NCBI GenBank assembly: GCA_903928565.1
Contig: CAIYRH010000013.1
Coordinates: forward strand, 1-40,512
From: Candidatus Staskawiczbacteria bacterium
GTDB taxonomy: Bacteria; Patescibacteriota; Minisyncoccia; Minisyncoccales; Staskawiczbacteraceae
DNA: 40,512 bases
Reading direction: 5' to 3'
Under the pieces are notes generated by a model. That model saw only the letters and a program-made list of their open reading frames with translations. It made no database searches and was not told the origin of the DNA. This document shows positions 23,501 to 28,945 of the stretch, piece by piece. The position numbers and the translations under genes are program-made. The first letter of the stretch is position 1. Every line of letters starts with the position of its first letter.

Positions 23501-26242
23501 TTACTTTTTTGTTTTTACCAATCTGCGAGTATTGTTCATTTTAGGCAAATATTTTGCCTCGCCCATAGGCTTACGGCCGAGGGGTAAATCAAAAACAATT
23601 TTGCCAGCTTTTTCATCAACCAAAATTCTGCTCCCTTCAGAAATTTCATTGGCAACAATTTTCACAGACAACGGATCTAAAATTAAACGCTGAATAACGC
23701 GCTTCATTGGCCTGGCACCCAAATTTGGGTCAAACCCTTCTTTCACCAAAAATTCTTTAGCTTTTTCAGAAATATCAATTTTTATTTCTTTAGTGGCCAA
23801 ACGCTTTTCAACTTTCAATAATTCCAAATTAACAATTGTTTTTATTTCTTCTTTCTTTAGATAATTGAAGATAACAATTTCGTCAATTCTATTTAAAAAT
23901 TCCGGTCTAAAAGAATCTCGCAGAGTATCAAATATTTTTTCCCTCATATTTTCTCTTTGAACCAATTCTTCTTTATTGCTAAACCCAAGTGAAGACATTT
24001 TATTAATGTAGTCACTACCCAAGTTAGAAGTCATTATAATTATTGTATTTTTAAATGACACCATTCTGCCCTTAGAGTCGGTGAGCCGGCCGTCTTCAAA
24101 AATTTGCAACAAAATGTTAAACACATCGGGGTGGGCTTTTTCAACTTCGTCGAGCAACAAAACCGAATATGGTCTTCTTCGAACTTTTTCGGTTAACTGG
24201 CCCGATTCTTCGTAACCAACATAACCTGGCGGACTTCCAATAATTTTTGAAACCGTGTGGCGTTCCATATATTCGGACATATCAAGACGAATCATTGCCT
24301 TTTCGTCATCGAATAAAAATTCTGCTAAAGCTCTGGCGGTTTCTGTTTTTCCAACTCCAGTTGGCCCCAAAAACAAGAACGAACCCAATGGTTTACTTTC
24401 TTCAGATATTCCCGCCCTGGCTCTGCGTATAGCCCGTGAAATGGCTGAAATTGCCTCGTGTTGGCCGATAACTCGTTTATTCAGAGTCTCTTCCATTGTT
24501 TCTAATTTTTTGGCTTCTTCGGTAATTAAACGCATTACCGGAATGCCGGTCCAGCGTGAAACAACACGCGCCACCTCTTCTTCTGTAACTTCTTCTTTTA
24601 AAAATCTGTGTTCTTTTTGAATTTTAATTAATTTTTGTTCGGTAGCAGCTAGCTCTTTTAATAATTCGGGAATTTTTCCATATTTTATTTCTGCAACTTT
24701 TTCTAAGTCGGCTTCGCGTTGAGCAATTTCGGTTTGATACGACAAATTATCAACTTTTTCTCTAATGTCTTTAATTTTGTTAATTAATTCTTTTTCAGCG
24801 CCCCATTTTAAACGCAATGCTTTAGTTTTTTCGTTTAAGTCGGCCAATTCTCTGGCAATAACTTTTAACCTGCGTTCGCTTCCCTTCTCTTTTTTTAAGG
24901 CCTGTTTTTCAATTTCAAGCTTCATAATGTCTTCATCAAATTTTTCTAACTCTTGCGGGTCGGACTCAATTTCCAATCTTAAAGCGCTAGCGGCTTCATC
25001 CATTAAGTCAACCGCTTTGTCTGGTAAAAACCTGTCGGCAATGTACCGGCTCGCCAAATCAACTGCGGCTTTAATGGCCGAGTCTTTTATTTTTACGCCA
25101 TGGTGAACTTCATATTTTTCTTTAATTCCCCGCAACATTGCAGTGGCATCTTCAATGCTTGGTTCTTGCACAAAAATTGGCTGAAACCTTCTTTCTAGTG
25201 CAGGATCTTTTTCAATGTATTTTTGGTACTCGCGCAAAGTTGTAGCTCCAATTGCCCTTAATTCGCCACGAGCCAAAGCTGGTTTTAGCAAATTTGAAGC
25301 ATCAATGGCGCCTTCGGCAGCCCCCGCTCCCACCAAAGTGTGAAGTTCGTCAATAAACAAAATATATTTACCAGCAGCTCTTGAAAGCTCTTTTAACAAG
25401 GCCTTAATTCTAGTTTCAAATTCTCCCCTGTATTTTGTGCCCGCAATTATAGAACCCAAATCTAAAGAAATAATTTCTTTATTTTTTAAAAAATCTGGCA
25501 CGCTTCCTCGAGCAATTCTTTGGGCAAAACCTTCAACAATGGCAGTTTTTCCAACACCCGCTTCGCCAATTAAAACTGGATTATTTTTTGTTCTGCGAGA
25601 AATTATTTGCATTAAGCGTCTAATTTCATTATCTCTACCAATTATTGGGTCAATTTTTCCGGCAGCCGCCAAATTAGTTAAGTTTCTAGTGTATTTTTCA
25701 ATTACTTGGTATTTTGATTCTGGGTCGGGGTCTGTAATTCTTTCTGACCCTCTAATTTGTGACAAAATTTTCATTACCGCTTCATAATCAAGTTTTGAAT
25801 TCTTCAAACCGGCTCCGTCTATTCCCGAAGGGCTCCCCGACAAAAAATTAATTTTTTCCAAAATATCTTTAGCTCCCGATTTTGTGTCTAACAATGCCAA
25901 AAACAAATGCTCAATAGAAATAAATTCATCATTCATTTTTACTGCTTCTTGGCGGGCTCTGTCTAAAACTTTTGCCATGTCCTGCGTTAAATAAAACTGG
26001 CCAAATGCCTGCGACACGGCAATAACCGGAATTTTTAAAATTTGCGCATCAACTTTTTTTATCAGCAAATCAGCATCAACTCCAAGTTTTTGCAAAATTG
26101 TAAGTACAATAGAACCTTCCTGTGTTAACAAAACAGATAATAAATGCAAAGCATCAATTTGTGATTGCCCCTTCTCTTGGGCCAACTGCTGTGCCTGCAT
26201 TAAAGCGTCTTGTGCTTTATTGGTAAAATTTGCTCCGTTCAT
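23501..26242 (-). CDS. clpB: ATP-dependent chaperone ClpB
   Basis: Clp-N domain, two AAA+ modules ([16 protein letters not shown]), and a long coiled-coil middle domain ([11 protein letters not shown]). Confidence 0.95.
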
Positions 26243-26321
26243 TTTTTATTTTTTTATTTATGTATTTATAATACTAATACGTTTAATAATATTATTTTAG
26301 TCTAAATATTATATTAAATCA

Positions 26322-26348
26322 ATAGCACTCTCAAGTCAAGAGTGATAA
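26322..26348. promoter_or_regulatory. CIRCE element (HrcA operator) upstream of clpB
   Basis: ATAGCACTC-N9-GAGTGATAA versus the consensus TTAGCACTC-N9-GAGTGCTAA; a minus-strand TTGACT -35 lies in the spacer. Confidence 0.9.
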
Positions 26349-26425
26349 CCTGTTAATAAAGTCACAAAAAAAATCCCCGCAAGCTTGATGGCCATTGGGG
26401 AAAAAATAGATTCGGCGAGCTTAGC

Positions 26426-26842
26426 TCACCCTTGCACGGTCGCTTCGACGAGGTTGTTTTTGGCTCTTGCGGCCTCTTCCTCTAATGCAGCTTTTGCTGC
26501 CATTTCTGCTTTTGCTTTTTCTTCTAAGGCGACGACCAGAAGCTTTCTGTCAGAGAAGTAGCGTGATCTGCCACTGTAAACTTCCGTACCATCGCGATAA
26601 ATGTGGAACCAACCCGATGGATCCTCTACCGCGGCAATTCCGTCATGAAAGTCGCCAGCAAACTTCAAATTACGCTGATAAACGCGATGATCTTGTTCGT
26701 CAACGTGATACCATTTGCGCTTACTAGGGTCGAGTCCGTCACAAACCACATAAAGTCCCTCGGAATGCCCGAGAACACGATTATGATTCAATTCCAACCA
26801 CTCTCTTATCGCTTGTATCCTTCTCATTTCTTGCATTATCAT
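26426..26842 (-). CDS. Small WG-repeat-like hypothetical protein
   Basis: AGDFHDGIAAVEDPSGWFHIYRDG and HSEGLYVV...WYHVD resemble WG/KWG repeats; AAGGA SD; helical tail. Confidence 0.65.
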   Translation of the reverse strand: MIMQEMRRIQAIREWLELNHNRVLGHSEGLYVVCDGLDPSKRKWYHVDEQDHRVYQRNLKFAGDFHDGIAAVEDPSGWFHIYRDGTEVYSGRSRYFSDRKLLVVALEEKAKAEMAAKAALEEEAARAKNNLVEATVQG

Positions 26843-26898
26843 AACGATCCTTTCATGGTGAATTGTTACAGATTGTGAATGTGCTGTATCGCACGTTT

Positions 26899-26925
26899 TA
26901 AAAAAGCTCCTCGTCGAGAGGAGCT
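26899..26925 (-). terminator. Intrinsic terminator / attenuator hairpin
   Basis: AGCTCCTC-TCGAC-GAGGAGCT followed by a U-run. Confidence 0.8.
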
Positions 26926-26953
26926 CATTTGAAGTTTTAATTTATTTTTGAAA

Positions 26954-27031
26954 TTAAACGCTCAAATCAACCTCTCTCTTAAAGAAGCTAAAGTAGAAAA
27001 ACCAGTTATTATTACGGTTGATATGATTCAT
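26954..27031 (-). CDS. Putative 25-aa leader peptide MNHINRNNNWFFYFSFFKREVDLSV
   Basis: ATG just after a sigma-70 promoter; 7 aromatic codons in 8 positions; its 3' end overlaps an antiterminator arm. Confidence 0.6.
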   Translation of the reverse strand: MNHINRNNNWFFYFSFFKREVDLSV

Positions 27032-27039
27032 ATGATTAT

Positions 27040-27068
27040 AATTTAGCAAATACAGTCCAAAGTGTCAA
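27040..27068 (-). promoter_or_regulatory. Sigma-70 promoter
   Basis: TTGACA-N17-TAAATT, preceded by TGC (extended -10). Confidence 0.7.
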
Positions 27069-27071
27069 TAC

Positions 27072-28220
27072 TTAAGTGGTTCTTTCAGACAAAGTTGCTG
27101 TAACGTCCATTTCTTTTCCATTGCGCAAAATATGCAACTTTACCGTGTCTCCAACATTATATTTTTGAATTATTTTTGCCATTGAGTTGTCAACCGTAAT
27201 TTTTTCCCCGTTAAGTGACAAGATAACATCCTTTTCTTTTATGCCCGCTTTGTCGGCTGGTGAACCCGCGGTTACCGCCGGTTCGCCGTTATTGCCCCTT
27301 AAAACCAATGCCCCACTATCTACAGACAACTTATATTGTTGTTTTATTTGGTCGTCAATTAAAAGGTATCTTACTCCTAAAAACGGGTAAACAATTTTAT
27401 TGGTTGCTACAACCTGTTGAATGTCTCTTTTTGCCATATTAATTGGAATGGCAAACCCAATGCTTTGAGCCCCTTGCGCCATGGCGGTATTAATTCCTAT
27501 AACTTCCCCTTTTAAATTTAACAACGGCCCGCCCGAATTTCCCGAATTAATTGCCGCGTCTGTTTGAATTATGCCCTCCAAAGTTTCTGAAAATGTGCCA
27601 ATTTGATCTGAAGCCGAAATTGTTCTTTGCAAACCTGAAACTACTCCCACAGAAACCGAATTAGAAAACTGTCCCAGTGAATTTCCAATGGCAATGGCAG
27701 TTTGGCCAATTTGTATGTCCGAAGAATCGCCAAGAGTTACCGGCTTAAATGCTCCCCCGTCATTCGACGGGGTCCCGCTGGGGCGGGAAATTTTTAATAC
27801 AGCTAAGTCTTGCACCGGGTCCAAAGCTAAAACTTTTGCTTTATATTTTTGGCCATCATTTGCTAAAACTGTGTAGTCTGCCTTATTGTCTGAAACAACG
27901 TGCTTATTTGTTAAAACCAAACCGTCGGCTGAAACAATAAATCCCGACCCCGCCCCAATTTCCTGATAAACTGGCAGACTGTTTGAGATAACAATGCTAA
28001 CTACAGAGGGCGAAACGTTTTTTGCAGCATCAATTATAGACTGTTCGTAAGAAACATTTGAAACATATTTATTTTGCGCAGGCGCATTTGCAACTTTAAG
28101 TGTTAGCGAGGGCAAATAATGCAAAACAGCCACGGCTGCTGAGCCAATAATTATTACAACTAATATTACAACCCAAAAACTTCTAGATTCTTTCAAATTA
28201 AATTTTGGTAAATTATACAT
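27072..28220 (-). CDS. htrA: HtrA/DegP-family serine protease with one PDZ domain
   Basis: TM anchor; GSGFIV, LTNKHVV, DLAVLKI, IQTDAAINSGNSGGPL; PDZ GSPADKAGIKEKDVI. Confidence 0.93.
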   Translation of the reverse strand: MYNLPKFNLKESRSFWVVILVVIIIGSAAVAVLHYLPSLTLKVANAPAQNKYVSNVSYEQSIIDAAKNVSPSVVSIVISNSLPVYQEIGAGSGFIVSADGLVLTNKHVVSDNKADYTVLANDGQKYKAKVLALDPVQDLAVLKISRPSGTPSNDGGAFKPVTLGDSSDIQIGQTAIAIGNSLGQFSNSVSVGVVSGLQRTISASDQIGTFSETLEGIIQTDAAINSGNSGGPLLNLKGEVIGINTAMAQGAQSIGFAIPINMAKRDIQQVVATNKIVYPFLGVRYLLIDDQIKQQYKLSVDSGALVLRGNNGEPAVTAGSPADKAGIKEKDVILSLNGEKITVDNSMAKIIQKYNVGDTVKLHILRNGKEMDVTATLSERTT

Positions 28221-28228
28221 ATTTATAT

Positions 28229-28945
28229 TTATTTATTTTTATCTTTATGGTGGTCAAATTTATATTTAAAAATATCGGTCTTAACCGGCCCCAAAAACAA
28301 CATGTGCAGTTCGCATAAAAAATATTTTGCACCAGTTGAAAGCCACCCGTCTGTTTTAAACCTTCTGTCTGAAACAAAAATTTCTGTTGTTTTTAAAATT
28401 CCAAATTTTGCTTTAAACACTCTGGTAGCTCTTCTAACCAAATAAACATCTTCAGCTAATTTTACGTCTTCATCAAAACCCCCAATTTTCTCAAACATAA
28501 CTTTCTTAATAAAAATTCCCATGGCTGCATGCGGCAAAGCGCTTTCCAACAAAACTACCGGCTGATTATAGAAAATATTTAATAAAAATGCAGACATTTT
28601 AGTATTTGGCAGAGGAACTAAACAAAGACCAGCCGCATCAAGATTTCTTTTTTCAATTTCCAATAAAGATTTTTCTAAAAAATGGTCTGGCAAAGCTTCG
28701 TCGGCGTCTACAAAGAATAACATTTCCCCCTTGGCAACTTTAGCGCCAAGGTTTCTTCCCCTGCCGGGCAACCCACCGGGAGTTATTATGCATCCGTATT
28801 GTTTAGCAATTTCAATTGTTTTGTCTTTTGAACCGGCGTCGGCAACAATTATTTCGTATTCACCAAAAGCCTGTCTTTTAATTGATTCTAAAAGCAACGG
28901 TAAATATTTTTCTTCATTTAAAGATGGAATAATTATACTTATCAT
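28229..28945 (-). CDS. Glycosyltransferase family 2
   Basis: ISIIIPSLNEE, IIVADAGSKD, RNLGA, FVDAD, GGFDE...ED. Confidence 0.93.
   Translation of the reverse strand: MISIIIPSLNEEKYLPLLLESIKRQAFGEYEIIVADAGSKDKTIEIAKQYGCIITPGGLPGRGRNLGAKVAKGEMLFFVDADEALPDHFLEKSLLEIEKRNLDAAGLCLVPLPNTKMSAFLLNIFYNQPVVLLESALPHAAMGIFIKKVMFEKIGGFDEDVKLAEDVYLVRRATRVFKAKFGILKTTEIFVSDRRFKTDGWLSTGAKYFLCELHMLFLGPVKTDIFKYKFDHHKDKNK

Follow-up and report, generated by a model that had tools for sequence, protein, structure and literature searches.

On the minus strand of a 40,512-nucleotide (nt) stretch of a Candidatus Staskawiczbacteria genome (contig CAIYRH010000013.1; the stretch is called the window and the genome G000), a short leader lies between the protease gene htrA and an orphan gene of 138 amino acids. 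We read this leader as a ribosome-sensed, or leader-peptide, transcription attenuator that responds to the supply of Phe-tRNA and, to a lesser degree, of Tyr- and Trp-tRNA, and that still gates the orphan in this bacterium; we put the probability of this reading at roughly 0.78. Leader-peptide attenuation is textbook regulation. A full-text literature search found no paper linking leader peptides to the candidate phyla radiation or the Patescibacteria. Comparison with related genomes indicates that an entire order of small-genome bacteria inherited the device from its ancestor, and there it appears to control DAHP synthase and prephenate dehydratase. In G000 the apparently intact switch is placed such that it would gate the orphan, which is WG-repeat-like, and its hairpin would also end the transcripts of htrA. 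The evidence from the window alone is suggestive; it is the comparative data that decide.

The leader promoter (27040..27068; all coordinates at this locus refer to the minus strand of the window) consists of TTGACA at 27068-27063, a 17-nt spacer, and the extended -10 element TGcTAAATT, with the TG at 27048-27047 and the hexamer TAAATT at 27045-27040. In a scan for consensus promoters it scores 10/12 plus the extended -10 (TG). Eight nucleotides past the -10 hexamer lies the ATG (27031-27029) of a leader open reading frame (ORF), the uORF (26954..27031), which comprises 25 codons and a TAA stop at 26956-26954 and encodes MNHINRNNNWFFYFSFFKREVDLSV; in the list of ORFs this frame spans 26954-27049 and opens with an in-frame TTG. 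The control codons, W10 F F Y F S F F17 (26981..27004), specify five Phe, one Tyr, and one Trp. Segment 1, AGCUUCUU (26982..26989; codons Ser15-Phe17), can pair with the 3' arm of the terminator. Segment 2, the 5' arm of the antiterminator (26951..26978), covers codons 18-26 of the uORF including the stop, and segment 3, the antiterminator 3' arm (26916..26943), doubles in its lower part as the 5' arm of the terminator. The intrinsic terminator itself (26900..26925) is made up of AGCTCCTC (26925-26918), TCGAC, GAGGAGCT (26912-26905), and TTTTT (26904-26900). The 57-nt 5' untranslated region of the orphan (26843..26899), with an AAAGGA ribosome-binding site at 26853-26848, comes next. The original prediction had placed a promoter, a 25-codon aromatic-rich frame, an antiterminator, and a terminator at this locus, and all four lie at the positions it gave.

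The 198-nt leader RNA has a minimum free energy (MFE) of -42.7 kcal/mol compared to a mean of -30.2 for its shuffled versions (z = -3.26), and 1 of 200 shuffles is as stable. Its MFE fold reproduces the antiterminator pairing with 28 nt per arm (26978-26951 with 26943-26916), which agrees with the earlier proposal that the 3' part of the uORF can pair with the downstream arm and would thereby sequester the 5' arm of the terminator. An extra helix joins AGCUUCUU (26989-26982) to the terminator 3' arm, so that the untranslated RNA would form one long nested hairpin abutting the U-run. Next to its run of five to six U, the terminator hairpin has a predicted energy between -11.6 and -14.8 kcal/mol. 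Only 2 nt separate the last aromatic codon from the antiterminator 5' arm, and the stop codon lies 22 nt into this arm. When the nucleotides that a ribosome would cover are masked in this leader, the fold retains the antiterminator for a ribosome placed on an early Phe codon and switches to the terminator for one placed on the stop codon.

We propose that the switch works in the following way. The ATG lies so close to the -10 hexamer, with no Shine-Dalgarno sequence in between, that a leaderless transcript is predicted: transcription would start at or within about 2 nt of the uORF AUG, resulting in leaderless translation as the RNA emerges. When charged tRNA-Phe is plentiful, the ribosome would pass W10-F17 and reach the UAA, which is located in the upper part of the antiterminator 5' arm, and a ribosome there would hold the arm unwound. 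The freed 3' arm and GAGGAGCU would then form the terminator, ending the transcript at the U-run after about 130 nt. When tRNA-Phe is scarce, the ribosome would instead stall at the earliest Phe codons, before reaching the 5' arm. The two 28-nt arms could then pair, the 5' half of the terminator would be sequestered, and RNA polymerase would read into the downstream gene. Given a ribosome footprint of about 12 nt beyond the A site, a stall at the first Phe codons would leave the arm free, and a ribosome at the stop codon would cover it. That stalling regulates the orphan in this way in G000 is what we infer from the arrangement of the locus.

The leader is well conserved. The 229 nt of intergenic DNA match 14 of the 24 genomes of the genus at 70-89% identity (BLAST). 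The alignments to these relatives stop no later than query position 172, where the terminator ends, except in G005, where similarity continues to query position 199. We built a covariance model, R1, from 15 leaders including the present one. Of 26 genomes of the genus, 22 contain a match (best match in each no higher than 8e-10); beyond the genus, matches occur in 27 of 150 other genomes sampled across the order and in 3 of 150 sampled across the phylum. In the first 15 loci the leader always sits directly after htrA. Directly upstream, an HtrA-like gene is present in 17 of the 22 genus members with the leader and in 5 of the 11 order loci that were inspected; these 11 loci all have the uORF, and 10 of them have the aromatic run. 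TTGAC occurs at the same spacing in all of the first 15 loci, where the -35 element starts 36-42 nt before the ATG; by our reading of these leaders, the -10 hexamer ends 6-13 nt before the ATG, and AGGA or GGAG is absent upstream of it in 13 of the 15. The leader of G010 is decayed, having lost its 5' half, with the score down to 70.9 bits, and a partial HtrA-like copy is found about 0.4 kb upstream of it.

The paired regions covary. Thirty-three leaders were aligned to R1, and in this alignment, which is fitted to the structure of the model, 94.7% of 825 cells are paired and compensatory changes occur at 19 of 26 stem pairs (110 cells). None of 500 shuffles reaches any of the pairing measures, and sliding the partners by 1-3 columns brings pairing to 36-64%. 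Over the same 33 leaders, the 22-base-pair (bp) antiterminator helix is 96% paired, with changes on both sides at 17 of its 22 pairs. The segment 1 helix, with a consensus of 4 bp, is 87.7% paired with compensatory change at two of the four pairs; a helix between segment 1 and the terminator 3' arm is present in 10 of 15 MFE folds of leaders. RNAalifold, applied to an independent MAFFT alignment of 15 leaders, also returns the antiterminator, with compensatory changes at 10 of 26 pairs. Using an alignment-free script, we found a hairpin abutting a U-run in 32 of the 33 leaders, and the terminator 5' arm falls wholly within the columns of the antiterminator 3' arm in 32 of the 33; for the 33rd leader (L033), the terminator lies just outside the model match. 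Antiterminators are predicted at -17.7 to -35.6 kcal/mol versus -4.6 to -19.8 kcal/mol for terminators in 15 of 15 leaders, and the G005 leader, which carries an insertion, has an antiterminator of -48.2 kcal/mol. Judged by these comparisons, the RNA structure appears to be under selection.

The uORF is subject to constraints of its own. It is kept in 32 of the 33 leaders, the exception being the truncated one in G010, and a cluster of at least four aromatic codons, mostly Phe, is found in 31 of 33. The distance from the ATG to the stem takes eight values between 47 and 68 nt and equals 2 modulo 3 in 30 of 31 leaders, that is, it varies by whole codons. The apical loop, which lies past the stop and is untranslated, measures 7-30 nt with residues modulo 3 spread 13/10/8. 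The 2-nt gap between the last aromatic codon and the antiterminator arm recurs in most leaders, and in leaders other than the present one the stop codon lies 19-37 nt into this arm, except for L048, where it lies at 4 nt. The C-terminal residues differ between leaders (from VDLSV to VGFGELKK) exactly where the stem covaries; hence the constraint acts on the RNA in the 3' part of the frame and on the codons in the aromatic run. The pattern indicates that the short frame is translated and that the amino acid sensed is probably Phe, with some Tyr and Trp. Of the residues named in the original prediction, the aromatic ones are thus retained, with Phe foremost, and Asn is ruled out, as the Asn-rich N-terminal stretch is not conserved. 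The same prediction had invoked the mutually exclusive logic of trpL/pheL attenuation, with a uORF and a pairing that should recur in relatives; both do, and the logic is backed by the conservation within the genus, the covariation, and the whole-codon length variation. In G005 the uORF (L013/L027) contains a 23-codon in-frame insertion, and the inserted RNA forms hairpins of its own.

The search of related genomes for the same leader, and the tabulation of the genes downstream, had been put forward as a check of the prediction and gave a positive result. Within the genus, the cargo is a DAHP synthase with a ferredoxin-like (FXD) regulatory domain in 3 of the 22 leader-bearing genomes (G003, G004, G024), prephenate dehydratase (PDT) as the first gene in four (G002, G012, G041, G021), and an ORF without assigned family followed by a PDT-containing frame in one (G006), so that DAHP synthase or PDT is found behind 8 of 22 leaders. 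Another 10 of 22 precede a free FXD-domain ORF of 66-107 amino acids, two precede the orphan (G000, G005), and two precede other ORFs without assigned family (G018, G020). The free FXD ORFs (loci L004, L008, L010-L012, L015, L033, L035-L037) were called at Pfam E <= 1e-3 in four cases, at E 0.004-0.013 in three, and by alignment or BLAST only in three. Seven to eight of them have in common the C-terminal motif N..F...H.DF.EAW.FF, which is absent from full-length DAHP synthase, and by their sequences these ORFs appear to form a conserved family of small proteins rather than to be chance truncations. In the order, DAHP synthase with FXD is the cargo at L044, L045, and L050, and PDT at L051. The cargo of DAHP synthase, PDT, and FXD in the relatives identifies the leader as an ancestral Phe attenuator of aromatic biosynthesis. 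The notion that the device arose for the orphan is therefore not borne out, since relatives carry DAHP synthase, prephenate dehydratase, or free FXD proteins in its place. At another locus of the order (L053 in G071; 1679-2464 of the oriented locus), an aromatic leader precedes an aldolase of the DeoC/LacD family (2.5e-63), not DAHP synthase; we take this enzyme to be, possibly, an aldolase-type alternative entry into the shikimate pathway.

The leader is retained more widely than the pathway, as neither DAHP_synth_1 nor PDT exceeds the cut-off in 13 of the 22 genus members that carry the leader. Chorismate synthase was found in none of five genomes tested, and a search of G005 for DAHP_synth_1, PDT, chorismate synthase, FXD, DHQ synthase, and CM_2 found none of these six families. 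What is present differs from genome to genome: DAHP synthase is the only one of the searched pathway families in G003; PDT, DHQ synthase, and chorismate mutase occur in G012, which lacks DAHP synthase; and in G024 DAHP synthase is accompanied by DHQ synthase and a PDT/prephenate-dehydrogenase fusion. We looked for relics of the old cargo at the present locus by tblastn with the DAHP synthase, PDT, and FXD sequences of the relatives, which gave only chance-level matches in 26200-27100 (E >= 0.27) and nothing at E <= 0.01 in the whole window.

Several regulatory systems resemble the present one in part. E. coli pheA and pheST are regulated by Phe-tRNA, as mentioned in passages of PMC11802643. 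The pheL-pheA leader of E. coli (Rfam RF01859, Phe_leader) has, like the one described here, a short ORF with a Phe run, mutually exclusive antiterminator and terminator structures, and an intrinsic terminator before the regulated gene, and it shares its prephenate dehydratase cargo with the relatives of G000. Unlike pheL, the leader in G000 is predicted to start leaderless and not with a Shine-Dalgarno sequence, lacks a distinct 1:2 pause hairpin, has a segment 1 that can pair with segment 4 (the terminator 3' arm) on either side of the antiterminator, precedes a non-biosynthetic cargo, and belongs to a different phylum. The best Rfam match of the region is indeed Phe_leader, over the whole model (1-125) with E 0.009-0.019 in E-value mode. 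A scan of the whole window in gathering mode returned no family at threshold, and Phe_leader, PyrR, AfaR, and others were all rejected as the identity of the element since they score below it; the element is thus an analogue of Phe_leader and not a member. In Corynebacterium glutamicum, the aroR-aroF leader carries a Phe-Tyr-Phe run, at which stalling under Phe limitation raises transcription (Neshat et al. 2014, as outlined in part of PMC11802643). Its cargo, DAHP synthase, is the same as in G003, G004, G024, L044, L045, and L050; compared by description, without sequence comparison, the present leader differs in its much longer aromatic run, in the FXD-bearing DAHP synthase of its relatives, and in the loss of that cargo here. 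Mycobacterial leaderless short ORFs with poly-Cys runs (Canestrari et al., bioRxiv 10.1101/834739, in the portion relevant here) report the supply of one amino acid via ribosome stalling at several loci. A leaderless sensory design is predicted for the leader in G000 as well; it differs from these ORFs in having an intrinsic terminator, and we interpret its control as transcriptional. T-box riboswitches likewise sense tRNA charging and switch a terminator, but do so by direct binding of the tRNA and have no leader peptide. In our assessment, the leader family is absent from Rfam and would represent an element of the pheL/aroR-like kind with a probable leaderless start.

A number of observations weigh against an attenuator that operates in G000 today. 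The six aromatic-pathway families listed above for G005 were not found in G000 either (95% complete), so the classical rationale for an attenuator, the cognate pathway, is missing here; genes that make or charge the sensed amino acid lie downstream of 8 of the 22 leaders of the genus and not of the one in G000. The 133 bits with which this leader scores against R1 are not independent, because it belongs to the training set, and the covariation alignment, as stated, follows the structure of the model. The Phe_leader match reaches 27.2 bits versus a gathering threshold of 55 and contains many non-canonical pairs, and a distinct 1:2 pause hairpin like that of trp leaders was not observed. That the transcript is leaderless, or nearly so, is predicted from the spacing between promoter and ATG only. 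Three further results weaken the case that the window makes by itself. The consensus terminator scan does not list the leader hairpin, probably because its stem can extend into the T-run. The region has hardly more promoter-like sites than expected (25 versus 18.9), and the six frames of the 718-kb genome, with 37% G+C, contain 43 eight-codon windows with at least seven aromatic codons, which by our own arithmetic corresponds to a chance of about 5e-4 per given 25-codon frame. For this uncultivated bacterium, the sequencing runs listed as containing the locus (25800-28300) are four DNA runs of one lake-water study, and none is an RNA run.

The folding calculations for the leader family add to these reservations. 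With a ribosome masked at the stop codon, the terminator is the MFE structure in 15 of 26 leaders; in the other 11, the lower antiterminator re-forms behind the ribosome and the long hairpin is the MFE structure. Moving the ribosome to the last aromatic codon yields the terminator as the MFE structure in 22 of 26 leaders, which implies that only early stalls would antiterminate and that kinetics must matter. With no ribosome at all, 19 of 26 leaders fold into the long nested hairpin abutting the U-run. The masked folds are calculated at equilibrium, ignore kinetics as well as the bulk of the ribosome, and are ambiguous over the leader family.

Such observations invite the alternative that the leader in G000 is a relic with a structural job, which no longer performs useful sensing and is kept as the terminator of htrA and the promoter for what lies downstream. 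The gene htrA (27072..28220, minus strand), which encodes a trypsin-like protease with a PDZ domain (Pfam Trypsin_2 1e-33, PDZ_2 2.8e-13), has its stop codon at 27074-27072, and the leader promoter begins 3 nt further on with no other terminator in between, so that the attenuator's terminator is the only one available to htrA transcripts. The long hairpin that the untranslated RNA forms at the U-run could terminate read-through from htrA, and both the absence of the aromatic pathway from G000 and the 13 of 22 leader-bearing genomes without the two enzymes agree with a relic. A plain terminator, however, has no need of a uORF, of its frame, of a Phe run, or of a promoter, and all of these are intact here and in the cargo-less genomes, whereas G010, with its 5' half gone, shows what decay looks like. 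We regard a purely structural role as unlikely.

It is also conceivable that the product of the leader, either the terminated RNA of about 130 nt or the hydrophobic peptide of 25 amino acids, is functional in trans, which could coexist with a switch in cis. In Sinorhizobium meliloti, the attenuator products of trpL, rnTrpL and peTrpL, act in trans, according to parts of PMC7298713 and PMC7968998, and from what these parts describe, roles beyond cis are one way for an attenuator to outlive its operon. The retention of the leader in many pathway-less genomes would fit such a role, as would the N-terminus M-N-Q-I-N/S that it shares with the Ile-rich leaders of the genus described below. On the other hand, the C-terminal half of the peptide varies freely wherever the stem covaries, and the N-terminal part is variable in both length and sequence. 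We hold a trans-acting product to be decidedly improbable. Least credible of all, to the point of being almost negligible, is an ordinary htrA terminator that happens to lie beside a fortuitous T-rich short ORF and a promoter-like site. The many aromatic-rich windows in this AT-rich genome and the commonness of promoter-like sites would allow for such a coincidence, but it is contradicted by the conservation, the covariation, the whole-codon insertions and deletions, and the biosynthetic cargo in relatives. An attenuator that senses Phe-tRNA supply remains our preferred reading.

The orphan gene (26426..26842, minus strand) encodes a WG-repeat-like core followed by an Ala/Glu-rich tail. It has no match in Pfam even at E <= 1. 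In the ESM Atlas, its nearest clusters are WG_beta_rep with a feature score of 0.90 and structural TM values of 0.57-0.62, and six structural rows reach the bar set by the tool for the name WG_beta_rep (PF14903), for which the Pfam profile stays silent. The WG-repeat label of the original prediction thus draws on feature and structure neighbors, and not on Pfam. One clear homologue was identified, in the same slot in G005 (43% identity, 2.7e-16); a search of genome contigs with the orphan gave only weak WG-like matches, in Thermogemmatispora and in a Lachnospiraceae metagenome-assembled genome. The orphan thus appears, from its distribution, to be a lineage-specific replacement of the ancestral cargo, seen only in G000 and G005. 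In a tree of HtrA, G000 pairs with G003, which has DAHP synthase as cargo (support 96/88), and not with G005. Because this single-gene tree separates G000 from G005, a single acquisition of the orphan slot is not deducible, and neither can the compensatory leader changes between G000 and G005 be dated after the cargo swap from it.

The possibility that the orphan has a promoter of its own, which would have undermined the original prediction, found no support: inspection by eye of the 57 nt between terminator and orphan ATG (26899-26843) revealed no convincing promoter, and the single site that the promoter scan gives near the start of the orphan has its -10 hexamer inside the first codons of the gene. 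The 5' untranslated region contains a small hairpin, GTGC (26894-26891)-GATACA-GCAC (26884-26881), and the homologue in G005 is preceded by a similar one, GTGC-AACAT-GCAC. A terminator-like hairpin, GGTGAGCTAAGCTCGCC, with a T-run overlaps the stop codon of the orphan (26414-26430, minus strand), which is probably therefore the sole gene of the attenuated transcript. The next gene is clpB (26242-23501, minus strand). An inverted repeat, TTATCACTC-N9-GAGTGCTAT (26322-26348, minus strand), overlaps its TTGACT-N17-TAATAT promoter and resembles the CIRCE heat-shock operator. CACTC-N9-GAGTG occurs once in the whole genome, at this site upstream of clpB, and a search of G000 for HrcA (PF01628) did not find it.

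Leaders of other types were encountered on a similar chassis. Five genomes of the genus (G011, G015, G001, G024, and G012; L038-L042, at about 1501-1620 of the oriented loci) have a second type, with the same TTGACA, predicted leaderless ATG, hairpin, and terminator, and with the Ile-rich peptides MNQISRNIIINIIINLS, MNKIFRNIIIIKIINLS, MNRIKNIIIIRIINLS, MNYIISKSIISIIINLS, and MNYTVSQNIIIINLS. In G024 the Ile-rich leader precedes an HMGL-like/LeuA_dimer enzyme resembling citramalate or isopropylmalate synthase; the other loci contain only small ORFs. The core motif of the Ile type was not found in G000 with up to three mismatches, and a regular-expression search of G000 for a promoter with an ATG 5-10 nt past the -10 yielded 12 short ORFs, with an amino-acid run only in the Phe leader. 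In G283, from the same phylum (L071; 791-927 of the oriented locus), a Cys-rich, predicted leaderless uORF, MKYQISQKICCCACCEISSGKEAGLL, with a hairpin and a terminator is located upstream of a gene for a 323-residue PALP-family (cysteine-synthase-like) protein, and its sequence makes it a candidate cysteine attenuator. Weak R1 matches with His-containing short uORFs, MLKRISHHHKSSSF and MQKLIKTISIHHINFFARRGWL, were obtained in G196 (L072; 1501-1637), after a Trp_repressor-family gene and before a SLOG/LDcluster4 gene, and in G024 (L043 on G024:C4; 1501-1632), where the downstream gene is PRTase-like. The occurrence of Phe-, Ile-, and Cys-rich leaders on one apparently leaderless chassis may point to a family of ribosome-based amino-acid sensors in these minimal genomes.

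For the biology of these bacteria, the finding bears on several levels. R1 provides a conserved, modelled RNA element for annotating an order of poorly understood genomes, and the leader flags what is left of an aromatic pathway undergoing piecemeal loss. More tentatively, and at somewhat less than even odds, we propose that the attenuator is kept as a free-standing sensor of Phe supply in bacteria that cannot make Phe, where it gates non-enzymatic cargo. In the pathway-less genomes, the switch would then gate stand-alone FXD proteins, which are of a Phe/Tyr-binding type, or the WG-like orphan. If this is true, a stall caused by lack of Phe-tRNA would report a failing supply from the host or community and trigger a non-biosynthetic response. 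An intact switch that outlasts its enzymes offers a natural case for asking whether an auxotroph can put an existing regulatory sensor to work on new cargo, and read-through that depends on Phe, if it holds for the orphan or the free FXD genes, would be a clue to the role of those genes.

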